Positions 1,561 to 52,656 of a DNA stretch of 64,000 nucleotides are shown in pieces. The DNA is taken from positions 490,303 through 554,302 of the forward strand of contig CP011215.1 of NCBI GenBank assembly GCA_001029775.1. Direction: 5' to 3'. The notes under the pieces were generated by a model, which was not told the DNA's origin, searched no databases, and saw only the letters and a program-made list of their open reading frames with translations. The translations under genes and the position numbers were made by a program. Each line of letters begins with the position of its first letter. Position 1 is the stretch's first letter. The DNA comes from Candidatus Campbellbacteria bacterium GW2011_OD1_34_28 (GTDB lineage: Bacteria > Patescibacteriota > Minisyncoccia > Phycocordibacterales > UBA12079).

Positions 1561-2175
1561 ATGAAACGAATGTTTGAAGGAACCATGTCAATATTGCTTG
1601 CCATCGCCACTCTTTGGCTGATGTCGGATTTGTATCGACAAAGGATCGAGGGGAGAAAGGCAGAAAAGGCTGGTGTTGTTCAGTTGGAGGGAAAAACTGA
1701 GCAGACCCAACAAGGTCCAAAAATCCACGAAGTGGCGAAGGGGAACACTTTGTTTTCCATCGCTCAGCGCTACGCGGTTTCCGTTGAAGCACTGAAAAAA
1801 GCCAACGGATTTTCTCACAGTCGCGATACTTTGTATCCGCGACAACTTCTCGTCATTCCAAAAACAAAGTATGTGGACGAACAGGTTCTTGCTTCTTGGT
1901 ATGGACCAGGATTCCATGGACGGAAAATGGCGAATGGCAAACGGTTTGATCAAAACGATCCAACCGTCGCCGCACACAAAACTTTGCCCCTCGGGACGAA
2001 GTTGCGCGTGACCAGTAAGGACACGGGCAAAAGTATTATTGTTGAAGTTCAGGATCGTGGCCCCTATATTTGGGGTCGTGAACTTGATCTGTCTATGGCG
2101 GCGATGAGGAGAATCGAACCGTTACAGAAAGGGGTTGTTGAGGTGCAGATCGAGACAATTTATCCCAGAGGATAA
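1561..2175 (+). CDS. LysM domain + RlpA-like double-psi beta-barrel protein (septal lytic transglycosylase family)
   Basis: N-terminal TM; LysM (GNTLFSIAQRYAVSVEALKKANG); RlpA motif WYGPGFHGRKMANGKRFD...TAAHKTLPLGTKLRVT...VQDRGPY; GC clearly higher than neighbours; strong RBS AGGAGG. Confidence 0.7.
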   Translation: MKRMFEGTMSILLAIATLWLMSDLYRQRIEGRKAEKAGVVQLEGKTEQTQQGPKIHEVAKGNTLFSIAQRYAVSVEALKKANGFSHSRDTLYPRQLLVIPKTKYVDEQVLASWYGPGFHGRKMANGKRFDQNDPTVAAHKTLPLGTKLRVTSKDTGKSIIVEVQDRGPYIWGRELDLSMAAMRRIEPLQKGVVEVQIETIYPRG

Positions 2176-10280: not shown

Positions 10281-11201
10281 ATGTCAAACAGGCACCTTTC
10301 AAGAACAATAGTTTTACAATCGCTCTTCGAGTGGGATTTCTCTTCGAAAGATAATTCCGAAGTAGATTCAATTCTTGAATATAATACAAGAGAATTTTCA
10401 ACTGGAATGTGTGATTTTGAGTTTTCACAAAAGCTTATCAAGATTGTTGTTGAAAAAAAACCTGTGATTGATGACATTATTCAAAAAGCAGCTCCTCAAT
10501 GGCCGATAGAAAAAATATCGGTTGTAGATAGAAACATATTAAGAATCGGTCTTGCCGAATTGCTTTTTGCTGATAGAAAAGAAATCCCGCCAAAAGTAGC
10601 TATCAACGAAGCAATTGAATTGGCGAAAAATTTTGGCGGTGAAAATAGCGGCCGTTTTATAAGCGGTGTTTTGGGAACTATTTACAAAGAAATGGGCGAG
10701 CCCGATAAGGACCAATTTGGAAAAAAGAAAAAGAAAATAGAAGATATCCCCTATGACCAAATGTTGGTCGAGAAAAAATGTGGTGCTGTTGTTTACTCTA
10801 TAAAAAATGACGAAATCCATTTTGCCTTGGTTCATGACATTTTTGGACACTGGACTCTTTCAAAAGGAAGTGGTTTAGAAGGAGAAGATCCAGAAAAATG
10901 TACAGCGAGAGTCGTTAAAAAAGAAATGGGTGTTGATATAAGTGTAGAGGACAAATTGGGTGATAACGAATACATTGCTTATGACCCAGAAAAAGGAAAG
11001 ACAAGAAGACAGGTTCTTTATTATTTGGCAAAGACAGAATACGCACCACTTGTTTTGGAGGACGGAGAAGATGCTGGTGGTTTGGATCAAGTAAAATGGT
11101 TCAAGATGTCAGAGATACCAGATTTGAATTTTTATGATGATATTCTTCCTATTGTTACAAAAGCGATTGAAATTTTGAAGAACAAAAAAACTATCGCTTA
11201 A
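10281..11201 (+). CDS. nusB: NusB antitermination domain fused to NUDIX hydrolase domain
   Basis: N-terminal ~140 aa NusB-like (RNILRIGLAELLF); Lys-rich linker; C-terminal Nudix box GSGLEGEDPEKCTARVVKKEMGV. Confidence 0.7.
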   Translation: MSNRHLSRTIVLQSLFEWDFSSKDNSEVDSILEYNTREFSTGMCDFEFSQKLIKIVVEKKPVIDDIIQKAAPQWPIEKISVVDRNILRIGLAELLFADRKEIPPKVAINEAIELAKNFGGENSGRFISGVLGTIYKEMGEPDKDQFGKKKKKIEDIPYDQMLVEKKCGAVVYSIKNDEIHFALVHDIFGHWTLSKGSGLEGEDPEKCTARVVKKEMGVDISVEDKLGDNEYIAYDPEKGKTRRQVLYYLAKTEYAPLVLEDGEDAGGLDQVKWFKMSEIPDLNFYDDILPIVTKAIEILKNKKTIA

Positions 11202-28300: not shown

Positions 28301-28416
28301 TTTAAATTTACATTTTATGAAAAATATTTTCTAAATCTTTATCCACAAATAGATTTGAAAAAAAGAGAGTAGAATTTTAGTAAATTCATTATTAATTTAT
28401 TAAAAAAGTCTTCAAA

Positions 28417-30699
28417 ATGGTAAAAAAAGTTCAAAAAGTTGGAAAAACATCCGATTTTATTAAAAAAGTACAAAAAAGAGACGGAACAGTTGTTTCTTTC
28501 AACGAAGAAAAAATTGTAAATGCTGTTTACAAGGCAATGCTTGTAACAAAAGAAGGATCTGAAAAAGATGCAAGATATATTGCTCACAAGGTTTATGTAG
28601 ATTTGTTGAAAATCGCTAAATTACATAAGACTTTTATTCCTACTATTGAGGGGATTCAAGACTCCGTGGAATCCGAGCTCATTTTGGGAGATTATGTAAA
28701 GACTGCAAAAGCATATATTCTTTACAGAAGAGAAAGAGAAAAATTGAGACAACAGGGGGTTAAGGTACCTGAAAAGGTAAAAATATTGACAGAGGAAAGT
28801 AAAAAGTATTTTAAAAATCCTTTGGCAGAATTTGTTTATTATCGATCTTATTCAAAATGGATAGAAGGAGAAGGTAGAAGAGAGACTTGGGTTGAGACAG
28901 TGGATAGATATATGGGTTTTATGCAAAAAAATCTTGGAAATAGTCTAAAACCTGCAGAATATAAAAAAATAAAAGAATTTATTTTGAGTCAAAAAACAAT
29001 GCCCTCAATGAGATTGATGTGGAGTGCTGGCAATGCTGCAGAAAAGTCTAATGTAACTGGTTACAACTGTTCTTTTATTGCACCTTCAAAACCAGAAGAT
29101 TTTGGAGAAATAATGTATCTATCAATGTGCGGTGCAGGGGTTGGTTTTAGTGCAGAAAGTCATAGCGTTCAAAAATTTCCTCAGATTCAAAAACAAACAG
29201 GAAAGAAGAGACCTTCTTATTTAGTTCCTGACAGTAAAGAGGGTTGGGCTGACGCTTTCGTCTTGGCGGTAAAAACATGGATGGCGGGAGAGGATATCGA
29301 CTTTGATTATTCACAGGTTAGACCAAAGGGGGCAAAACTTAAAACAATGGGTGGAAAAAGTTCGGGACCAGAACCTCTTATGGAATTGATGAGTTTTGCA
29401 AAAGAAAAGATTTTAAGAAAACAGGGGAGAAGATTGAGCAACTTGGATGTCCACGATATTGTTTGCAAGATTGGAGAAATTGTTGTTTCTGGAGGAGTGA
29501 GAAGGACTGCTTTGATATCGTTGTCTGATTTGGACGACAAAGATATGAGATCTGCAAAATTTGGACAATTTTATATTACAGAACCACAAAGAAGTATGGC
29601 AAATAATTCTGCCATCTATAATGAAAAACCAACAAATGTTGAATTTATGGATGAGTGGATAGCCTTGATGAAAAGCGGTTCGGGAGAAAGAGGCATCTTT
29701 AATAGAGGGTCTTTAAAAAACCAAATGCCTGATAGAAGATGGAAGGTTTTTGAAAAAGATTTGGATAGTTGTGGGACAAATCCTTGTGGTGAAATTGTCT
29801 TGAAATCCAAACAATTTTGTAATTTGTCTGAAATAGTTGCTCGTGCGGAAGACACAGAAGCTATTCTTATGGAGAAAGCAAGAATTGCAGCAATTTTGGG
29901 AACTTATCAGTCAACACTGACCAACTTTGGATATCTTTCAAAAGAATGGAAAAAGAATTGTGAGGACGAAAGATTGCTCGGAGTATCAATTACAGGACAG
30001 TGGGATTGTAAGATTTTGAAAGATAATGCAAAACTTTTGCAAAAATTAAAAAATGAAGTTATCAAAACCAACAAAGACTATGCAAAAAGATTTAAAATAA
30101 ATCAGTCTACTTGTACGACTTGTGTAAAACCTTCTGGAACAGTTTCTCAATTGGTAGACGCTTCATCAGGAATGCATCCTCGGCACTCAGAATATTATAT
30201 TAGAAGAGTGAGAATTTCTGCGACAGATAGTTTGTTCAAGATGCTAAAAGATCAAGGAGTTTTGTATCATCCAGAAGTAGGGCAGTCATATGAGAATGCC
30301 AATACTTATGTTTTGGAATTTCCCGTTAAGGCGCCTGCAAAATCTGTTTTCAAAAATGATTTAACAGCAATAGAGCAGTTGGAACACTGGAAATTGGTAA
30401 AAACAAATTATACAGAACACAATCCGTCAGTAACAATTTCTGTTGGTGAAGGTGAATGGATTGAAGTGGGGAATTGGGTTTATTCAAATTGGGATATCGT
30501 CGGGGGGCTTTCGTTTTTACCAAGATCAAACCATGTTTACAAGCTGGCTCCGTATGAAGAAATTGATAAAAAAAGATATGATGAGATGTTGAAGCGATTT
30601 AAAAATATTGATTTCTCAAAGATTGTGACTTATGAAAGAGCCGATGAAACTGAAGGAGCAAAAGAATTGGCTTGTATGGGGGGAGTGTGCGAACTTTAA
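28417..30699 (+). CDS. nrdJ: ribonucleotide reductase, likely class II (B12-dependent)
   Basis: N-terminal ATP-cone (VQKRDGTVVSFNEEKIVNAV); RNR catalytic barrel with active-site Cys; C-terminal CMGGVCEL. Confidence 0.7.
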   Translation: MVKKVQKVGKTSDFIKKVQKRDGTVVSFNEEKIVNAVYKAMLVTKEGSEKDARYIAHKVYVDLLKIAKLHKTFIPTIEGIQDSVESELILGDYVKTAKAYILYRREREKLRQQGVKVPEKVKILTEESKKYFKNPLAEFVYYRSYSKWIEGEGRRETWVETVDRYMGFMQKNLGNSLKPAEYKKIKEFILSQKTMPSMRLMWSAGNAAEKSNVTGYNCSFIAPSKPEDFGEIMYLSMCGAGVGFSAESHSVQKFPQIQKQTGKKRPSYLVPDSKEGWADAFVLAVKTWMAGEDIDFDYSQVRPKGAKLKTMGGKSSGPEPLMELMSFAKEKILRKQGRRLSNLDVHDIVCKIGEIVVSGGVRRTALISLSDLDDKDMRSAKFGQFYITEPQRSMANNSAIYNEKPTNVEFMDEWIALMKSGSGERGIFNRGSLKNQMPDRRWKVFEKDLDSCGTNPCGEIVLKSKQFCNLSEIVARAEDTEAILMEKARIAAILGTYQSTLTNFGYLSKEWKKNCEDERLLGVSITGQWDCKILKDNAKLLQKLKNEVIKTNKDYAKRFKINQSTCTTCVKPSGTVSQLVDASSGMHPRHSEYYIRRVRISATDSLFKMLKDQGVLYHPEVGQSYENANTYVLEFPVKAPAKSVFKNDLTAIEQLEHWKLVKTNYTEHNPSVTISVGEGEWIEVGNWVYSNWDIVGGLSFLPRSNHVYKLAPYEEIDKKRYDEMLKRFKNIDFSKIVTYERADETEGAKELACMGGVCEL

Positions 30700-30883
30700 T
30701 AATCAAATTTAAATTTGATTATTAAAGTTCAAGTAGTAAGGTATAAGTAATAAGGTGTAAGCAAAGCAAAAACTTGGGGGGAAATCTCCAGGTTTTTGTT
30801 TTGACAATTTGTTAGAAAAATGTTAAAAATACTGTTAGAAAAAGGACAGCGGGTGTCCTTGTAATTTAAGCAAAGAGGAAATC

Positions 30884-31033
30884 ATGACACTTGAAAAAAG
30901 GTTGCAGAATGGTAAAAGGGTTGTTTCGTTTAAACCCAGTATGGATCTCTTGAACAAGGGTTTCAAGCCAATTTCGCCTCCGGCGATTATGAAGAGTCGC
31001 GGTCGTATCAGTCAAGACAAGAAAGGACGCTGA
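30884..31033 (+). CDS. candidate 49-aa basic sORF or structured leader upstream of rplU
   Basis: GC-rich; RBS AGAGGA; MTLEKRLQNGKRVVSFKPSMDLLNKGFKPISPPAIMKSRGRISQDKKGR; own terminator 31042..31072. Confidence 0.25.
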   Translation: MTLEKRLQNGKRVVSFKPSMDLLNKGFKPISPPAIMKSRGRISQDKKGR

Positions 31034-31041
31034 ACGACAGC

Positions 31042-31072
31042 AAAAAGGGGACCTTGTAAGGCCCCCTTTAAT
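31042..31072 (+). terminator. intrinsic terminator/attenuator ahead of rplU
   Basis: AAAAAGGGGACCTTGTAAGGCCCCCTTTAATTT. Confidence 0.55.
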
Positions 31073-31123
31073 TTGTCTATAATTAGTTGAAATTTTTAAA
31101 TAATAGTGTAATATATAGTAATT

Positions 31124-31435
31124 ATGAAATTCGCAGTAATAGAAACAGGAGGAAAGCAATACAAAGTCTCAGAAGGAGATGTTGTTAAAATTGAAAAGCT
31201 TTCTGATTATAAAAAAGACGGTAAAGTAACTTTTGATAAAGTACTTCTTATTGATGATGGTAAAACAACAGAAGTAGGAGCGCCATATATCAAAGGAGCA
31301 AAAATTTCCGCTGTCTTCGAAGAAGAAGGAAAAGGAAAAAAAGTTCACATTGTAAAATTTAAATCAAAGAGTAACTATTCAAAGAAGATTGGTCACAGAC
31401 AACCATTTAACAAAATAAAGGTTGAAAAGATATAA
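31124..31435 (+). CDS. rplU: 50S ribosomal protein L21
   Basis: MKFAVIETGGKQYKVSEGDVVKIEKL. Confidence 0.85.
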   Translation: MKFAVIETGGKQYKVSEGDVVKIEKLSDYKKDGKVTFDKVLLIDDGKTTEVGAPYIKGAKISAVFEEEGKGKKVHIVKFKSKSNYSKKIGHRQPFNKIKVEKI

Positions 31436-31436
31436 A

Positions 31437-31466
31437 AAAAGCACCCCTAGGGGTGCTTTTTTAGTC
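31437..31466 (+). terminator. intrinsic terminator
   Basis: AAAAAAGCACCCCTAGGGGTGCTTTTTTAG. Confidence 0.75.
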
Positions 31467-31649
31467 GTAGATGTGTAAATATGCTTTGGCAATCTCCCTT
31501 TCCTCGGGAGGCATTTCTTTCATTTTATCAAGAAGATGAGATGTGTTTCCGGTGGAATTTCTTCCGCTAAGAAGACCAAGATGTCTTCTTTCACATACTG
31601 TATGCGGGTAGATTTTCTTGACTGTCTTTTCCGGTTTTTTAGGAGTCAT
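31461..31649 (-). CDS. small basic hypothetical protein
   Basis: 62-aa ORF; family not recognised. Confidence 0.3.
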   Translation of the reverse strand: MTPKKPEKTVKKIYPHTVCERRHLGLLSGRNSTGNTSHLLDKMKEMPPEEREIAKAYLHIYD

Positions 31650-31764
31650 TTTGATTTCTTCCTTTTAGCAAAATTTAAACTTTGTGAACGAATCTGAGAT
31701 AAATTTTAGCATATTTAAATAAATTTAAAATTGTTTGTTAGCAAGTCTTGAGTAGCAAATTTAA

Positions 31765-32313
31765 CTACTCTACGATTTGTAACTTAGGCCATTTCGAAAG
31801 CCATTGTTTTTTGTTTACTCGATTTATAAAATAATCACGCCCATCTCCAAAATTGGGGGTCATTCTTAGTTTAAGAGAAAATAAATCATCTAAACCGTGA
31901 GGAGCTATTATTTTTAAAGAATCGTCTGGCAACATTACAACTCCAATAGCTGTCGCTGTTTCTGGCCAATGTGTGATAGCATCTGTCGACGAAATATAAT
32001 CAGCCCCCTGATTGTTTATTTTCCCCATTCTTGCTTGATTGGTAACAGACCAATCAGCTTCTAATTTTTCTGAAAGAATCCTTTCGTATTTTTTTTCTGT
32101 CTCTTCTGATAAGTCATTTGGATCAAAATATATAACATCAATATCTGTCATATGTGGTTTGTTTTTAAAATTATGTAATGCATCCCAAACAGGGTTACGG
32201 ACAAATCCAGCTCCGATCAACCAATCAGGAAGATTTAATGTGCGAACAGTTCTTAAGATATCCATTCTCCAAGGATCGTTTTTTATTATATTGACGATAA
32301 AATCTTCGTTCAT
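31765..32313 (-). CDS. nucleotidyltransferase-family protein
   Basis: WLIGAGFVRNPVWDALH motif. Confidence 0.5.
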   Translation of the reverse strand: MNEDFIVNIIKNDPWRMDILRTVRTLNLPDWLIGAGFVRNPVWDALHNFKNKPHMTDIDVIYFDPNDLSEETEKKYERILSEKLEADWSVTNQARMGKINNQGADYISSTDAITHWPETATAIGVVMLPDDSLKIIAPHGLDDLFSLKLRMTPNFGDGRDYFINRVNKKQWLSKWPKLQIVE

Positions 32314-32329
32314 TTTTAAAAGTATATCA

Positions 32330-32470
32330 TTTATATTTTTTACGAAAAGCGTGGGGGCGCTTTTCTTTGACTATGATGACTCGACTTCCAGTTCTAATCG
32401 AAAATTTCGTCTTCACTTCGTTACAACTCATTTTCGATAAGAACTCGCTGTCCCGTCGCTCATATTTTTC
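32330..32470 (-). repeat. solo/degenerate copy of tRNA-flank repeat module (no adjacent tRNA)
   Basis: rc: GAGCGACGGGACAGCGAGTTCTTATCGAAAAT...ATTTTCGATTAGAACTGGAAGTCGAGTC; same hairpin module as the Ser copy. Confidence 0.45.
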
Positions 32471-32549
32471 TATATACAAAACACCTAGAATTTTTGTTAA
32501 TTTTGTAATATAATTCAAGATATTTTAAGTTTTTAACTTTTGATATTTG

Positions 32550-32621
32550 GGCGTAGTGGCGAAGTGGAAACGCTGTGGTCTGCAAAACCACCATGCGCCG
32601 GTTCGATTCCGGCCTACGCCT
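32550..32621 (+). tRNA. tRNA-Cys (anticodon GCA)
   Basis: acceptor GGCGTAG/CTACGCC, anticodon loop CTGCAAA, T-loop TTCGATT. Confidence 0.8.
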
Positions 32622-32627
32622 CAAAAT

Positions 32628-32709
32628 GCCTGGGTGGCGGAATTGGTATACGCGCACGACTTAAAATCGTGTCTCGCAAGAGATGCGGGTTCGACTCCCG
32701 CCCTAGGCA
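32628..32709 (+). tRNA. tRNA-Leu (anticodon TAA), class II
   Basis: acceptor GCCTGGG/CCTAGGC, anticodon loop CTTAAAA, long variable arm, T-loop TTCGACT. Confidence 0.85.
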
Positions 32710-32748
32710 CATTGAAATTTTTTGAAATTTCAATACAATAGTGTATTA

Positions 32749-32992
32749 TCCGCTCGTAGCTCAGCTGGATGAGAAGCGTTGAAGCTTCGAATCCGAGCGA
32801 AGCGAGGTGGAAGAGTATTCCTTTGAAATGTAAGAGTCGGATGCTAATACACTTAGCATGGACTTCAGAGGTTTTACACAAAAGTAAAAGTAGAGATATC
32901 CGCTCGTAGCTCAGCTTCTGCCAAAGGCAGACAGGGTCCGAGCAACAATCATTGAGACAGACAAGTCTGTAAAATCATCATGGATTTAGTAT
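32749..32992 (+). pseudogene. two truncated 5' copies of tRNA-Lys each followed by unrelated structured sequence
   Basis: TCCGCTCGTAGCTCAGCT(GG) occurs at 32749, 32899 and 32991; only the third continues into a full tRNA; copy 1 is followed by CTTCGAATCCGAGCGAAGCGAGG. Confidence 0.55.
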
Positions 32993-33065
32993 CCGCTCGT
33001 AGCTCAGCTGGTAGAGCATCCGACTCTTAATCGGCAGGTCGAAGGTTCGATCCCTTCCGAGCGGA
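32993..33065 (+). tRNA. tRNA-Lys (anticodon CTT)
   Basis: acceptor CCGCTCG/CGAGCGG, D-arm GCTCAGCTGGTAGAGC, anticodon loop CTCTTAA, T-loop TTCGATC. Confidence 0.8.
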
Positions 33066-33157
33066 CAAGTAGACCCGAAGGAGGGTAAACGAATTATTAG
33101 ATAATTTTATATTTCTCGTTTTGAATATATTTCAATTTTGAGATTTAAATTTTTAAC

Positions 33158-33307
33158 ATGTCACAAGATCAATTGATAAAACTGGCTTGTCAGAGTTGTA
33201 AAAGAATCAATTACTGGAGCAGAAAAAATAAAAAACTGGTTCAAAAAAAGATTGAATTGAAGAAAAGATGTAAATGGTGTGATAAGCAAACAGTTCACAA
33301 AGAAGTA
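33158..33307 (+). CDS. rpmG: 50S ribosomal protein L33
   Basis: 49-aa ORF absent from the ORF track: MSQDQLIKLACQSCKRINYWSRKNKKLVQKKIELKKRCKWCDKQTVHKK with two CxxC pairs. Confidence 0.7.
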
Positions 33308-33325
33308 AAAAAATAATTTCAAAAT

Positions 33326-33355
33326 TTAGTCGATACTTTATAAACTTTTAACTTT
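33326..33355 (-). repeat. short TTTATAAAGT-type repeat, reverse copy of 55137..55160
   Basis: rc GTTAAAAGTTTATAAAGT matches 55140..55160. Confidence 0.45.
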
Positions 33356-33374
33356 ATAAACTTTCGACTAATTT

Positions 33375-33447
33375 GGGCCTATAGTTTCAATTGGTAAAAC
33401 AGTGGTCTCCAAAACCATCGTTCGAGGTTCGAGTCCTCGTGGGCCCG
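33375..33447 (+). tRNA. tRNA-Trp (anticodon CCA)
   Basis: acceptor GGGCCTA/TGGGCCC, anticodon loop CTCCAAA, T-loop TTCGAGT. Confidence 0.85.
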
Positions 33448-33681
33448 CAAAAAGAAGACCCGCAAGGGTTTTTCTTTTTGTTGGGTCCACGAACAAAGCA
33501 ATCTAAATTGCTTTGTGTAGGACGAGAACGGCGGAGCGGTTTACAATTTTAGTAAAATTTTCCAACAAAGAAAATCTTACTAAAATTGTCGCGAGCCGCG
33601 TCCAGCGATACTTAGACTTTTTGAAACACGAAGTGTTTCAAAAAGACTTAGTAATCGCGGGACAGTCCTCGTGGGCCCGCA
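33448..33681 (+). repeat. tRNA 3'-flank structured repeat element (Trp copy)
   Basis: terminator hairpin, GTAGGACGAGAACGGCGGAGCGG core, variable hairpin, arm GCGAGCCGCGTCCAGCGATACTTAGAC + long hairpin TTTTTGAAACACGAAGTGTTTCAAAAAG + AGACTTAGTAATCGCGGGAC, direct repeat AGTCCTCGTGGGCCCGCA of the tRNA-Trp 3' end. Confidence 0.65.
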
Positions 33682-37233: not shown

Positions 37234-39723
37234 CTAGCCCAACTTATTTATCCAATACCTATATTGATCACTTTTGTCTTTATAATTTTTAAACAGATTA
37301 AAGCTGGCGGCGGCGTTTGATAATAGACAGATTCCTTTTCCGTTTTCATAAGCTTTACTGACCGCATTTTTCATATTGTTTACTTCAAAAATATTTCTAT
37401 TCTTTACATATTTAACCATTTCTTTTCCTGTTTCCGGAAAGATTATAAAGTTTTTTATCTCCGTTTTTGTTAGATATTTTGCAAAATTATCCAAAGGAAT
37501 ATTTCTGTTTAATCCGCCTAAAATTATTGTATTTACATTTTTTAGAGATTTTATTGATTCAATCGTTGCTTCTGGAATTGTTGCCAGTGAATCATCATAA
37601 AAGATTACACCTTTTTTTTCCATCACTTTTTCTAATCGCAGAGGTAAAGGCTTGAAGGTTTTTATAGAATCTTTTATTTTTTTGTCTGATAGCCCAAATT
37701 GTCTAGCGACGGTATAAGCAATAAAACAATTAAGTTGATTATGTTCTCCCTTCAATTCCGTCTTAAATTTTATTGGTGATTTTTTAAATTTTAATATTTG
37801 AGCTTTTGTTTTGTAATTATGATCGCTTGTATTGATGAATAAATTATTTTTGTTTTGGAAATTTGTGATGTTAAATTTTGCGTCTTTGTATTCATTAAAA
37901 TTTTCGTGATGATTAAGATGGTCGTGAAAAATATTAGTGAGGACTGCAATCTGGGGAGATTTTTCTAAGTGTTCACACTGAAAACTACTCATCTCATAAA
38001 TATAGACATTTTCTTTTTTGTTGTTCTTGTTTTCTAGAAAATTTAGTCCTGTTGTTCCTATATTCCCGATAAGGTATGAACCTTTTAAGATGTGATTAAT
38101 TAAACTTGATATAGTGCTCTTGCCTTTTGTCCCTGTAATTCCAATAACACTTCCTTTAATATTTTCCATAAAGAGGTTCGTGAGGCTTGATATTTTTGTG
38201 TTTTTTGATTTGATTTTTAATTTTATAGTTGGAATTCCGGGAGATTTATAAACAATTTTAAAATCAGCGGGAATTATTAGATTGTTATGAAAATTAATAT
38301 TACTTGGAAATCCTTCCCTCAAATGATCCTCGTCAAATATATGAATTTCTGTGTTTGGTCGTTTTTTAAAATATTCGTACAATGCCTTGCCTTCTGTTCC
38401 GAATCCGGCTATTGCAATTTTTTCTTTTAAAAATTTATTAGGAACCAGATGTTCTGTAGTTTCAGATGTTAAAATTTTGGAGTAATTGCTAGCTTTATCC
38501 GTATTTATTTTTTGTAAGATAGATGGAAGTTTTTTATATTTTTGTTTGGCTAAGTGAAGAGCGAGAAGTGTTTCTTCAATTGTCCCAACACAATCAAAAG
38601 GTTTGTTGTCTTTTTGTCCAACTAATTCTCTATACAAAGGTAATAGAGATTTATCTTTAAATAAATTTTTCCCAAAAATTTGTTCTGTGGTTTTTGAATC
38701 AATGAACGCATTTAATCCCGCAAATACAAAACCGCATTTAGCACATTTCCCACACCATTTTCCTGTTTTTAAACCAGGGTTACAACTTATAAATGAATTA
38801 AAATATTGTGGATATTCAACAAATTTTTTCATTATCTGAATATCATATAAATTTCTTAAAAGAGAAAAATAATTTATATCCGGGGATATGTATTTCTGTA
38901 TATATTCGTGTATTTGTTTTTCAAATTCAAAACTTTTTGAATATTGATGGTTTATTTCTACTCCCAAATATTTTAAGTTGCCTGTGTTAGCACTTCTTTC
39001 ATTCGATAATATTATGTATTTAAAACCATATATTTGAGCCACTAGCGTAGCACTAAATGCGTAAACTGAGGATATCGGGACATGCCCGTTGTAAGCACCT
39101 TTTTTGTTAAGGTTTGTTATTTCTTTGAAGTTTTTTTGTACATCTCTACCTAGAAATATTTTTTTATTATTTTTTGATGTTTTAATGACTTGTTTTGTTG
39201 CTTTATTTGGCTCTATCGCAAACCAAGTAAAATCAAAACCTTTTTCTCTGAGTATTTCTGCACTTACAATACTGTCTTTACCTCCTCCGATTGGAAGCAG
39301 GACGCTCTCTCTTTTGGGGGACATCCGATGCCCCCCAATTTTTAAGTGAGGTGCTTTTGGATCAATCTTTATGTTTATTAAATTTCTGAAATCAATTTTA
39401 TTTTTATAAAAAAATTCACCCAAACCTTTTTCGTAGAGATTTTCCCAGAACTTTATTTGGACTTTATCTAGATACCCAGCTTTTATTGTGATTTTTGGAG
39501 AGCAATATGCTTTGTAGAAACTGGGCAATTCTGCCATCCCTAAATTAAATACAGCTGATGCAATTTTTGATGTATTTTTAACCTTGCTTAAATCTATTTT
39601 TATTTCTGGATTAAAATAAATTTTGTCGTCAAAAGAATAATGAAAAACTATTCTATTTTTCTTTTTATTTATATTAAATCCGTGAAATATGAATTCTTTA
39701 TAGGTTTCTTTTGATTCAGACAT
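37234..39723 (-). CDS. murD: MurD (UDP-MurNAc-L-Ala--D-Glu ligase) fused to an N-terminal QueC/Dph6-like PP-loop ATP-pyrophosphatase domain
   Basis: C-terminal ~430 aa shows MurD motifs (KIVYKSPGIP, GITGTKGKSTI, YEMSSFQCE, DDSLATIPEAT, LSNAAASFNLFKNY); N-terminal ~400 aa has PP-loop PIGGGKDS and a C-x9-C-x2-C-x2-C zinc ribbon ~170 aa downstream. Confidence 0.7.
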   Translation of the reverse strand: MSESKETYKEFIFHGFNINKKKNRIVFHYSFDDKIYFNPEIKIDLSKVKNTSKIASAVFNLGMAELPSFYKAYCSPKITIKAGYLDKVQIKFWENLYEKGLGEFFYKNKIDFRNLINIKIDPKAPHLKIGGHRMSPKRESVLLPIGGGKDSIVSAEILREKGFDFTWFAIEPNKATKQVIKTSKNNKKIFLGRDVQKNFKEITNLNKKGAYNGHVPISSVYAFSATLVAQIYGFKYIILSNERSANTGNLKYLGVEINHQYSKSFEFEKQIHEYIQKYISPDINYFSLLRNLYDIQIMKKFVEYPQYFNSFISCNPGLKTGKWCGKCAKCGFVFAGLNAFIDSKTTEQIFGKNLFKDKSLLPLYRELVGQKDNKPFDCVGTIEETLLALHLAKQKYKKLPSILQKINTDKASNYSKILTSETTEHLVPNKFLKEKIAIAGFGTEGKALYEYFKKRPNTEIHIFDEDHLREGFPSNINFHNNLIIPADFKIVYKSPGIPTIKLKIKSKNTKISSLTNLFMENIKGSVIGITGTKGKSTISSLINHILKGSYLIGNIGTTGLNFLENKNNKKENVYIYEMSSFQCEHLEKSPQIAVLTNIFHDHLNHHENFNEYKDAKFNITNFQNKNNLFINTSDHNYKTKAQILKFKKSPIKFKTELKGEHNQLNCFIAYTVARQFGLSDKKIKDSIKTFKPLPLRLEKVMEKKGVIFYDDSLATIPEATIESIKSLKNVNTIILGGLNRNIPLDNFAKYLTKTEIKNFIIFPETGKEMVKYVKNRNIFEVNNMKNAVSKAYENGKGICLLSNAAASFNLFKNYKDKSDQYRYWINKLG

Positions 39724-39778: not shown

Positions 39779-40948
39779 ATGTTTTTTAAAAAGAAAGAAA
39801 GAAGGGTTTTTTTGGATCACGCTACAACTACGCCTGTTAGAAAAGAAGTCTTGAAAGTAATGGAACCTTATTGGAATGAAAAATTTGGAAATCCAGGTAC
39901 AATTCACAGGTTTGGGGTAGAAGCCAAAAAAGCACTAGATGAATCAAGAAAAAAGATTTCTCAGATTTTAAAATGTCACAGCGATGAAGTGATTTTTACT
40001 GCGAGTGGAACAGAATCAAACTCGTTGGCGATTTTTGGTTTCCTAGACAAACAAGAGGAAAATGGAGCCGATTTTAAAAAAATGCATATTATTACAACAA
40101 AGATGGAACATCCGTCTATTCTTGCTTGGTTTGCACGTTTTGAAAGAAAAGGTATAAAAGTTTCTTATATTGATATTGATAAAGAGGGGATTGTTGATTT
40201 AAAACAATTTAGAAAATTGCTTACTCCCGAGACAATTTTTGTTTCTGTAATGTGTGTAAACAACGAAATAGGAACAGTTCAGCCGATTTCAAAAATAGCA
40301 CATATTATAAAAGATTTTAATCGCGACAATAAAGCAAAAATAATTTTACATAGTGACGCTAGTCAGGCACCTTTGTATTTGAAATTGGATGTACATAGTT
40401 TGGGCGTGGATATGCTGACAATAGATGGACAAAAAATCTATGGACCAAAGGGGGTAGGGGCTTTGTTCAAAAAAAGAGGTATTGAAATCAATCCCTTGTT
40501 GGCAGGAGGCAGTCAAGAAATGGGACTTCGTGCAGGAACAGAAAATATTCCTTTGGTTGTTGGTTTGGCAAAAGCTTTTGAATTGGCGGAAAATGAAAGA
40601 GAAAAAGAATCAGAGAGATTGATAAAATTGAGAGACAAATTTATTGATAGAATTTTAATAGAAATCCCAGGATCAGTTTTGAACGGAAGTAAAACCGAAA
40701 GAATCCCAAGTAATGTAAATATTTCTATTCCTAATATTGATAGTGAATACATGATAATCAAGCTAGATGCAAAAGGAGTTGCTTGTTCTTCAAAGAGTGC
40801 GTGTATGGGAAGAATAAAAAGTGCTTCTTATGTGATAGAAGCATTGGGTAACGACATGGGCAATTCTTTGCGATTTAATTTGGGAAAAAGTACAACAGAA
40901 AAAGATATTGATTATGTTGTTGATATGATAAAACAAAGCATTAAGTAG
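39779..40948 (+). CDS. cysteine desulfurase (class V aminotransferase)
   Basis: PLP-fold; active-site region IDGQKIYGPKGVGALF; C-terminal catalytic Cys loop. Confidence 0.8.
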   Translation: MFFKKKERRVFLDHATTTPVRKEVLKVMEPYWNEKFGNPGTIHRFGVEAKKALDESRKKISQILKCHSDEVIFTASGTESNSLAIFGFLDKQEENGADFKKMHIITTKMEHPSILAWFARFERKGIKVSYIDIDKEGIVDLKQFRKLLTPETIFVSVMCVNNEIGTVQPISKIAHIIKDFNRDNKAKIILHSDASQAPLYLKLDVHSLGVDMLTIDGQKIYGPKGVGALFKKRGIEINPLLAGGSQEMGLRAGTENIPLVVGLAKAFELAENEREKESERLIKLRDKFIDRILIEIPGSVLNGSKTERIPSNVNISIPNIDSEYMIIKLDAKGVACSSKSACMGRIKSASYVIEALGNDMGNSLRFNLGKSTTEKDIDYVVDMIKQSIK

Positions 40949-51498: not shown

Positions 51499-52656
51499 TT
51501 AAACAAACTTTATTTTTTTCAAATATTGAGGAAGTTTGTTTATTTTTACAATTTCATAAGAAACATTATGTGTATTTTTGAAAATAACTTCGTCTTCAAG
51601 CGCTTCTTTTTGGCCGATTATTATCATATAAGGAACGCGTGTTTTTTTTGCGCTGATAAACTGATCGCTTAGCTTGTTTTTATATAGTTTTTGATGAACT
51701 GTGATTTTTTGTCTTCTCAAGATATCAATTACCTCAAAACTTTTTAGTTTTGCTTTGAATCCAAATTGAATCAAAAATATTTGAGGGGTGTTTATTTTGT
51801 TTGAGTAAGCAGGAGTAAATCCATTTTTCTTGTAAATCATAGAAAGACCAACTGCGGGTAGATTTCTTTTTCCGATGATTTTGTTTACTACATCATCATA
51901 TCTTCCTCCTCTTGCCAAGATTAATTCTGTAGAGTCTTCTCCTAATGTTTTAATTTCAAAGACTGTTTTTGAATAATGGTTGTCTTCTACAACAAGGTCA
52001 CTGTTGATTCGGTAGGGAAGACGCATGTCTTCTAGATATTCCAAAACCTCTTTAAAGTGTTGGCGGCTTTTTTCTGTTAAGTAGTTTATTGGTCGCGGAG
52101 CATTTTCTATCAATTCTCTGCAGTTTTCGTTTTCACAAGAGGTTGCTAAGAAATTTTTCTTATCAATTTTATATTTACAACTACAATTGAAAGAACCAGA
52201 ATGTTTTTTATAATAATTACCTACTTCCTCTATAAATTTGTTTAGAGAGTCTTTATCACCTGTACAATTTATATCTATAAAAAAATTTTTATAACCTTCT
52301 TCACTTAGAATTTTTGAAGCCGTATTTATAAGCATTGCTTCGGCGATACTATTTTGAACTCCGATAATATCAAGGCTTAAGACTTTGTGAGTTTTTAAAT
52401 TAGGAATTTGTTTTTTGTTTATCAAAATAGGACGATCAAAATAAAGCATTAGTGGTTGTGAGTTTGCACCTTTTCCACTCATTTTTCCATATGTTTTTAA
52501 TACATGGTGTTTTTCTTCAGGGTGAAGAGGAGTATTTTTGTTTGTGTAGGCGGTTGGGATTTCTTCAAATCTAAAACCATGGTGAAGTGCTATTTCGTCA
52601 GCTTTGTCTAATCTTTTTTTGAGGATTTTAATGTCCATATTTTTGTTAAAAAACAA
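51499..52656 (-). CDS. hisS: histidyl-tRNA synthetase (atypical N-terminus, Cys-rich insertion)
   Basis: LSLDIIGVQNSIAEAMLI, motif 3 GGRYDDVV, C-terminal anticodon-binding domain. Confidence 0.65.
   Translation of the reverse strand: MFFNKNMDIKILKKRLDKADEIALHHGFRFEEIPTAYTNKNTPLHPEEKHHVLKTYGKMSGKGANSQPLMLYFDRPILINKKQIPNLKTHKVLSLDIIGVQNSIAEAMLINTASKILSEEGYKNFFIDINCTGDKDSLNKFIEEVGNYYKKHSGSFNCSCKYKIDKKNFLATSCENENCRELIENAPRPINYLTEKSRQHFKEVLEYLEDMRLPYRINSDLVVEDNHYSKTVFEIKTLGEDSTELILARGGRYDDVVNKIIGKRNLPAVGLSMIYKKNGFTPAYSNKINTPQIFLIQFGFKAKLKSFEVIDILRRQKITVHQKLYKNKLSDQFISAKKTRVPYMIIIGQKEALEDEVIFKNTHNVSYEIVKINKLPQYLKKIKFV

Follow-up and report, generated by a model that had tools for sequence, protein, structure and literature searches.

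A MurL-MurD2 fusion protein in a Campbellbacteria-type Patescibacterium, a probable bifunctional enzyme on the alternative D-glutamate route to peptidoglycan precursors

In canonical peptidoglycan precursor synthesis, the ligase MurD draws on free D-glutamate made by a cofactor-independent racemase, MurI. An alternative, the MurL/MurD2 pathway of Xanthomonas oryzae, was reportedly set out by Feng et al. in 2017; there a MurD-type ligase is coupled to an AMP-forming glycopeptidyl-glutamate epimerase. MurL and MurD2 were discovered in X. oryzae (PMC8788868; PMC5808125), where XOO_1319 (MurL) adjoins XOO_1320 (MurD2), the latter annotated as MurD before it was characterised, and both are required (PMC8788868). 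MurL works in one direction only, from L to D, and adenylation of the alpha-carboxylate is the mechanism that its discoverers proposed for it (PMC8788868). It was said to have no known conserved domains (PMC8788868; PMC5808125), and the pathway was portrayed as a drug target of narrow spectrum, restricted to a few genera (PMC8788868). Here we describe a gene of Candidatus Campbellbacteria bacterium GW2011_OD1_34_28, located at positions 37234–39723 of a 64,000-nucleotide stretch of its DNA (contig CP011215.1, positions 490,303 to 554,302; hereafter the window), whose product joins homologues of both enzymes in one chain, in the order MurL-MurD2. We conclude that the product of this gene is very probably a bifunctional MurL-MurD2 enzyme that serves the alternative D-glutamate branch.

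A preliminary description of this gene had seen a MurD fused to a QueC/Dph6-like PP-loop domain, proposed a one-enzyme route to an amidated stem peptide and knew of no earlier account of it. A pathway of two enzymes, MurD2 and MurL, has in fact been on record since 2017; the basic biology is unchanged, and the gene offers no new way of amidating the cell wall. The enzyme pair is already known, and both halves are recognised by current Pfam and NCBIfam models. The literature that was searched contained no description of the fused architecture or of its prevalence in Patescibacteria, and did not place MurL among QueC-like PP-loop enzymes. The structural insight of the preliminary description was good, whereas its amidation hypothesis is not supported.

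One polypeptide with a MurL half and a MurD-type half

The gene is a single ATG-to-stop open reading frame (ORF) on the minus strand (37234–39723; 829 aa plus stop, from the ORF list and translation), and the plus strand of the same interval is interrupted by many stops. In the gene product a PP-loop domain and a MurD-type ligase are genuinely fused in one chain. Most relatives have two adjacent genes instead of one (56 of the best 80 GTDB loci, described below), as would be expected if murL and murD2 had been joined here by a sequencing or assembly error, a doubt already raised in the preliminary description. There is next to no chance of this, because at least 24 contigs and three independent NCBI assemblies, all of Candidatus Campbellbacteria-type genomes, encode exactly the same 829-aa protein, which refutes a frameshift or assembly artefact. 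Among the best 120 database relatives, 119 are full-length fusions with the same architecture (757–939 aa, 36–68% identity), so that the other full-length top matches are fused without exception (119/119). The reading frame continues unbroken through the linker between the halves, the family-invariant residues of both halves are all present, and the AlphaFold2 model of the full-length protein is confident (predicted local distance difference test, pLDDT, 92.9; predicted template modelling score, pTM, 0.81). Public annotation names the fused proteins plainly as 'D-glutamate ligase', and the Pfam domains precomputed for the exact protein are PF26299 MurL_N, PF26298 MurL_epimerase_C and PF08245 Mur_ligase_M.

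The N-terminal half matched the NCBIfam model NF041275 (MurL_Xanthmoales), the model for UDP-N-acetyl-alpha-D-muramoyl-L-alanyl-L-glutamate epimerase, over aa 4–394 and model positions 3–396 of 447 (E = 1e-78 to 2e-79). At 267 bits the score is well short of the 700 bits that this Xanthomonadales model requires of an equivalog; it shows family membership, not equivalog status. No match to this half was obtained in a Pfam copy without the MurL families. One representative of ~450 aa recovered in a search with the MurL domain is named 'UDP-N-acetyl-alpha-D-muramoyl-L-alanyl-L-glutamate epimerase' by JGI. Going by its profile match, the N-terminal domain is homologous to MurL along its entire length.

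Fold and conserved residues of the MurL domain

Three parts can be delimited in the MurL domain (aa 1–432). The first, a MurL-specific N-terminal subdomain of beta-sheet and helices (aa 1–135, 39319..39723, minus strand), was assigned from PF26299 MurL_N, the secondary structure of the model and conservation, with its boundary estimated from the model; it has conserved K71, C74, W93 and GLGEFFY (aa 100–106), of which C74 is kept in only 114 of 147 relatives. The second is a QueC-like core of the PP-loop ATP pyrophosphatase type (aa 136–340, 38704..39318, minus strand), which includes a four-cysteine (Cys4) ribbon. The third, delimited by model secondary structure and the conservation profile, is a helical C-terminal extension followed by a poorly conserved linker (aa 341–432, 38428..38703, minus strand; linker ~aa 395–432). 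Within this extension lies the motif KPFDCVG (aa 374–380, 38584..38604, minus strand) with the invariant Cys378, a candidate epimerase catalytic residue.

Both motifs of the preliminary description were found again in the translation. The PP-loop reads PIGGGKDS (aa 144–151, 39271..39294, minus strand), and the putative QueC-type zinc ribbon, C314-x9-C324-x2-C327-x2-C330 (CNPGLKTGKWCGKCAKC, aa 314–330, 38734..38784, minus strand), begins 163 aa past it, close to the ~170 aa noted before. Across 147 diverse relatives the invariant or nearly invariant positions are the PP-loop (G/S)GGKDS, H214, E242, H259, Q260, K263, R290, the four ribbon cysteines, K374, C378 and E384. In the PP-loop, G148 was kept in all 147, D150 in 146, and K149 and S151 in 142 each, while position 146 varies, with G in 128 relatives and S in 16; each ribbon cysteine was kept in 146, and of the residues in and near the C-terminal motif C378 was kept in 147, E384 in 146 and K374 in 141.

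The N-terminal 433 aa had no sequence match in the PDB even at E up to 10, and the fold is therefore taken from the predicted model. AlphaFold2 modelled aa 1–432 with high confidence (73 aligned sequences; pLDDT 94.7, pTM 0.93), and Foldseek matched this model to QatC, QueC, TtuA and Cap9. Among solved structures, the closest in fold are QueC and PP-loop enzymes that make nitriles or amides by handing an adenylated carboxylate to ammonia or an amine. Structure prediction thus bore out the PP-loop fold of the preliminary description. At the level of sequence families the agreement ends: the only other NCBIfam match on the protein is a faint one to the QueC model NF008317, confined to the Cys ribbon (aa 309–345, E = 0.17, 11 bits against a cutoff of 378), a Pfam scan of the protein at E up to 1 gave no QueC match, and neither Pfam nor NCBIfam scans gave a match to Dph6/ATP_bind_4. 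The model therefore points to a QueC-like PP-loop fold with a Cys4 ribbon in a protein whose family is MurL, neither QueC nor Dph6. The earlier label of a QueC/Dph6-like domain holds for the fold, in its QueC part, and fails for membership of either family.

Compared with QueC (Bacillus subtilis, 3bl5), the MurL domain shares the PP-loop (S/G)GGxDS, the Cys4 ribbon ~160 residues downstream and carboxylate adenylation, the last as proposed for MurL. It differs in falling outside the QueC hidden Markov model (HMM), in having ~135 extra residues at the N-terminus and ~90 at the C-terminus that include the invariant additional cysteine, in its substrate, a UDP-muramyl dipeptide, and in the outcome, epimerisation and hydrolysis in place of an amide or nitrile; a que gene context is also lacking. 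In QueC the Cys4 ribbon is a structural zinc site, and by analogy the ribbon of MurL most likely binds structural zinc. The PP-loop fold, as modelled, is compatible with AMP-forming adenylation and would give the published adenylation proposal a structural basis. Viewed as a PP-loop enzyme of QueC-like fold that has a Cys4 ribbon and one further, invariant cysteine, MurL would offer a concrete starting point for understanding the proposed adenylation-driven epimerisation.

Glutamate determinants of the ligase half, the proposed reaction and its rivals

The C-terminal part (aa 433–829, 397 aa; 37237..38427, minus strand) is a three-domain, MurD2-like Mur ligase of the MurD type, identified by TIGR01087, PDB matches and catalytic residues. 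TIGR01087 murD scored 257.7 bits, above the cutoff of 211.95, in agreement with the MurD motifs reported for this part in the preliminary description. Pfam gave Mur_ligase_M and a weak Mur_ligase_C on this half, which also matched the solved MurD structures 4buc (E = 1e-35), 3lk7 and 1e0d. The ATP-binding P-loop GTKGKST (aa 531–537, 38113..38133, minus strand; from the translation) is invariant in the family. Residues were mapped by alignment to Escherichia coli MurD, with literature numbering equal to the translation position minus 1; the catalytic K535, E577, H602, K616, T715 and S807 correspond to E. coli K115, E157, H183, K198, T321 and S415, and all are conserved. Residues of X. oryzae MurD2 were compared by way of the E. 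coli numbering in a review of the pathway (PMC8788868).

That review singles out the equivalents of Glu197, Arg358, Phe435, Pro433 and Lys319 as positions for glutamate stereochemistry (PMC8788868). A K319T mutant of E. coli MurD gains the use of L-Glu; in X. oryzae MurD2, E197D changes stereospecificity and the double mutant E197D/R358K switches to D-Glu (PMC8788868). The state of these positions was counted in 119 fused homologues and in 74 partner ligases linked to MurL. Arg740 (37504..37506, minus strand), at the position of E. coli Lys348 and of the L-Glu determinant Arg358 of MurD2, is Arg in 119/119 fused proteins and 70/71 partners. Leu713 (37585..37587, minus strand), the equivalent of E. 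coli Lys319, is Ile, Leu or Asn in 119/119 fused proteins and Ile or Leu in 71/71 partners, never Lys. Phe808 (E. coli Leu416, MurD2 Phe435) is Tyr or Phe in 118/119 and 69/71, respectively. Lys319 is present in the canonical MurD of E. coli, Thermotoga maritima and Streptococcus agalactiae; the first two also have Lys348, a position at which the streptococcal enzyme has Arg. Loss of Lys319 would thus be a family signature of MurL-linked ligases, and by these alignments the ligase half carries the signature of such ligases in R740, L713 and F808.

The two remaining positions are in a minority or E. coli-like state. Ala806 (E. coli Ala414, MurD2 Pro433) is Pro in 96/119 fused proteins, and the partners have Pro in 32, Ala in 24 and Ser in 13. 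Asp601 (37921..37923, minus strand; E. coli Asp182, MurD2 Glu197) is Asp in 59 and Glu in 59 of the fused proteins, and Glu in 65 and Asp in 8 of the partners. Asp601 is a genuine caveat because E197D altered the stereospecificity of MurD2; it is nonetheless compatible with a coupled pathway, because Asp is common in ligases fused or operon-linked to MurL.

The protein thus resembles the X. oryzae pair in belonging to both families, in joining a MurD-type ligase to a glycopeptidyl-Glu epimerase of the AMP-forming kind, in Arg at the Arg358 position and in an aromatic residue at the Phe435 position, and differs from it in being one polypeptide, in Asp at the Glu197 position, in its MurL score, and in its host, an AT-rich Patescibacterium as opposed to a proteobacterium or actinomycete. 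In the reaction that we propose, the ligase half would use one ATP, converted to ADP, to form the acyl-phosphate of UDP-MurNAc-L-Ala and to couple L-Glu to it, as suggested by its signature residues and by the logic of the fusion: the ligase must deliver L-Glu, because MurL is unidirectional from L to D and the fusion would otherwise be senseless. The MurL domain would spend a second ATP, to AMP and pyrophosphate, on adenylating the alpha-carboxylate of the terminal L-Glu, a reaction modelled on that of the characterised Xanthomonas MurL. Adenylation would acidify the C-alpha proton of this residue, which would be inverted before the activated carboxylate is hydrolysed. Deprotonation of C-alpha and reprotonation from the opposite face might occur on the adenylate itself, or else through an oxazolone or a thioester to Cys378; Cys378, H214, H259 and K263 are conceivable participants in the proton transfer or thioester step. 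Relative to canonical MurD and MurI, the ligase fold and catalytic residues are the same; unlike in that system, Lys319 is absent and inversion would follow ligation, at the cost of the second ATP. The host would then need neither free D-Glu nor a glutamate racemase.

Several points weigh against this proposal. The MurL match lies far under the equivalog cutoff, so that a function is assigned over a large distance. The murD HMM scores the ligase half as an ordinary MurD; this model does not separate MurD from MurD2, because XOO_1320 itself was earlier annotated as MurD. With Asp601 in place of Glu197, the ligase could be relaxed or capable of using D-Glu. With E. coli MurI as the phmmer query, the 64-kb window and the flanks of 80 related loci yielded no MurI-like ORF, and Pfam scans of ~40 longer ORFs of the window showed neither a glutamate racemase nor a D-amino-acid aminotransferase family; these checks cover a small part of the genome. 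An active glutamate racemase reportedly occurs in at least one lineage of the candidate phyla radiation (CPR), Saccharimonas, according to the title of a study.

On such grounds the ligase half might be an ordinary D-Glu-specific or relaxed MurD, with the MurL domain correcting misincorporated L-Glu or serving as a second route and D-Glu coming mainly from a racemase encoded elsewhere. The TIGR01087 score above cutoff, the E. coli-like Asp601 together with the effect of E197D, the restriction of the murI search to window and locus flanks, and MurI in some CPR bacteria, as that title has it, would all agree with such a corrector. We consider it unlikely, since Lys319 is replaced throughout, Arg stands at the 348 position in virtually all fused and partner ligases, and the close linkage of the two genes in operons or fusions, seen across phyla, speaks for a two-step pathway that is obligatory; the history of XOO_1320 takes the force out of the HMM score. 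Amidation, as first proposed, is more improbable still. There the PP-loop domain would adenylate the alpha-carboxylate of newly added D-Glu and amidate it with ammonia, giving an iso-glutamine stem peptide and replacing MurT/GatD, a proposal that draws on the amide-forming nearest solved folds and on Asp601, the canonical, D-Glu state of MurD. Adenylation of the alpha-carboxylate indeed fits the mechanism proposed for MurL, and this part of the earlier claim stands. Its second part, amidation to iso-glutamine, is unsupported: the domain is homologous to MurL over its full length, and characterised MurL gives D-Glu and no amide; the QueC HMM reaches 11 of the required 378 bits; the R740, L713 and F808 signature is common to MurL-linked ligases; and Asp at the 601 position is itself common among them (59 fused, 8 operon partners). 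MurT/GatD, the lipid II isoglutaminyl synthase, likewise has the alpha-carboxylate of D-Glu in the stem peptide as its target, and one of its subunits is of Mur-ligase fold. It differs in that MurT activates by ATP to ADP, with a glutaminase partner and on lipid II; the MurT model reached 28 bits on our protein against a cutoff of 800, a generic Mur-ligase similarity, and no GatD-like protein was found among the window ORFs scanned, all flanking genes included. A triple-activity enzyme, in which the QueC-like MurL domain partitions the glutamyl acyl-adenylate to ammonia after inversion and yields D-iso-glutamine, would combine ligation, epimerisation and amidation in one protein and replace MurI and MurT/GatD at once; we give it as little credence as amidation without inversion, all homology arguments favouring plain epimerisation.

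The N-terminal part could also be thought an authentic QueC (preQ0 synthase) or a Cap9/QatC-type defence protein fused to MurD by chance, its best structural neighbours being QueC, Cap9 and QatC with the same layout of PP-loop and Cys4 ribbon. Cap9 (CBASS, 9nto) and QatC (QatABCD, 9y02) share the QueC-like PP-loop fold, and QatC is of similar length (~425 Foldseek columns); set against this are a TM-score of 0.40 and a housekeeping context without defence neighbours. PADLOC gave no defence-system match, on which ground the defence reading was rejected. For QueC, the marginal HMM score and the empty Pfam scan are joined by the extra residues at both ends, which are conserved with MurL, and by the neighbourhood: no que genes occur among the annotated neighbours or scanned window ORFs, so that the check suggested in the preliminary description for a fortuitous QueC came out negative. 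The linkage is specifically to murD, in 74 of 80 loci. Fortuitous fusion of a QueC or defence protein can hardly be correct, and a bifunctional MurL-MurD2 enzyme remains by far the better account.

Distribution of murL-murD loci and the genes around the fusion

A HMMER scan of a library of representatives at 50% identity with the MurL domain recovered 2689 relatives with E values of at most 1e-3, of which 1194 had E of 1e-30 or less. The best 146 library relatives include 121 stand-alone proteins (~400–500 aa), 23 MurL-MurD fusions and one reverse fusion (P0141, 883 aa, MurD-MurL). Two unusual forms were also seen: P0210 (791 aa) carries its MurL domain at 350–754 behind an N-terminal part of ~349 aa, and P0191 (1039 aa) has extra N-terminal sequence ahead of MurL-MurD. 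Among GTDB species genomes at least 600 MurL matches were obtained, 599 of them confirmed, and locus arrangements were counted in the best 80 of these. In 56 of the 80, the gene directly downstream of murL on its strand is murD-like; murL is fused to murD in 8 and shares a strand with a murD-like gene further apart in 10; the other 6 showed MurL only, several on truncated contigs. Because this adjacency dominates, the fusion in the window is, on the comparison of these loci, a derived form of a strongly conserved murL-murD2 pair, and the existence of independent fusions in both orders argues for functional coupling of MurL and MurD.

Patescibacteria are represented among the best 80 loci by Gracilibacteria, Paceibacterota/Parcubacteria, Nealson-, Falkow-, Kerfeld-, Roizman-, Gottesmanbacteria and Peribacteria, and also by a cultured member, Minisyncoccus archaeiphilus PMX.108, with MurL and an adjacent murD-like gene. 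Closed genomes that carry MurL include NZ_AP038758.1 (M. archaeiphilus) and CP179889.1 (Nealsonbacteria). The same 80 include metagenome-assembled genomes that by record title belong to Bacteroidales, Clostridia/Lachnospirales/Oscillospiraceae, Delongbacteria, Acidobacteria and others, and several loci with MurL and a murD-like gene fall outside the genera of the 2021 review (taxa again by record title). These searches suggest that the MurD2/MurL pathway is far broader than a few genera and that MurL is often fused to its ligase. In reduced genomes the annotation 'D-glutamate ligase' would hide a likely lack of any requirement for free D-Glu. Structural work and studies of substrate channelling would be made easier by a MurL-MurD2 that occurs naturally as one chain.

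The genes flanking the fusion are unrelated housekeeping genes, encoding a MYG1-family protein, a DUF4446 protein, IF-2, RbfA, a NifS/IscS-type cysteine desulfurase, an ASCH protein and TsaD; FtsZ and FtsA are encoded ~8–10 kb from it. The cysteine desulfurase gene (39779–40948, plus strand; TIGR03402 390 bits, below cutoff) is divergent and begins 55 bp from the start of the fusion gene. By analogy with thiolating PP-loop enzymes, the desulfurase might be functionally tied to the PP-loop domain; this was rejected, the adjacency occurring in 0/80 related loci, and we treat the adjacency as coincidental.

As stated in the preliminary description, the window holds no separate canonical murD: tblastn with the MurD half found no second MurD or MurL, although the same search missed a MurF-like ligase at 118–1389. 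This ligase (plus strand, 423 aa) can now be added to the gene content; it scored 254 bits with TIGR01143, just under the cutoff of 288.6, and has Pfam Mur_ligase_M and C domains. It is followed by a LysM and DPBB (RlpA-like) protein at 1561–2175 (plus strand).

Beyond rbfA the gene order varies. In GCA_003489565.1, of the same species (locus L002, 16401–21665), alanine racemase, L33 and ClpB follow, and in the window (~28400–33500) and other assemblies (L003 and L004) NTP_transf_6, L21 and a B12-type ribonucleotide reductase are found there instead; the difference is either a strain-level rearrangement or an assembly difference. An Rfam scan of the window gave no family other than tRNA at gathering score. 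Eleven tRNA genes are present, at 32550–33448 (plus strand) and elsewhere, including a Cys-Leu-Lys-Trp cluster just past rbfA/infB. A 306-aa ORF at 10281–11201 (plus strand) combines NusB (aa 7–136) with a NUDIX hydrolase (aa 175–283), an unusual fusion for NusB. A 385-aa ORF at 51499–52656 (minus strand) shows a weak C-terminal tRNA-synt_His match (E = 4e-8, aa 179–274) and an anticodon-binding domain, and its product may be a divergent or truncated HisRS or a HisZ-like protein.

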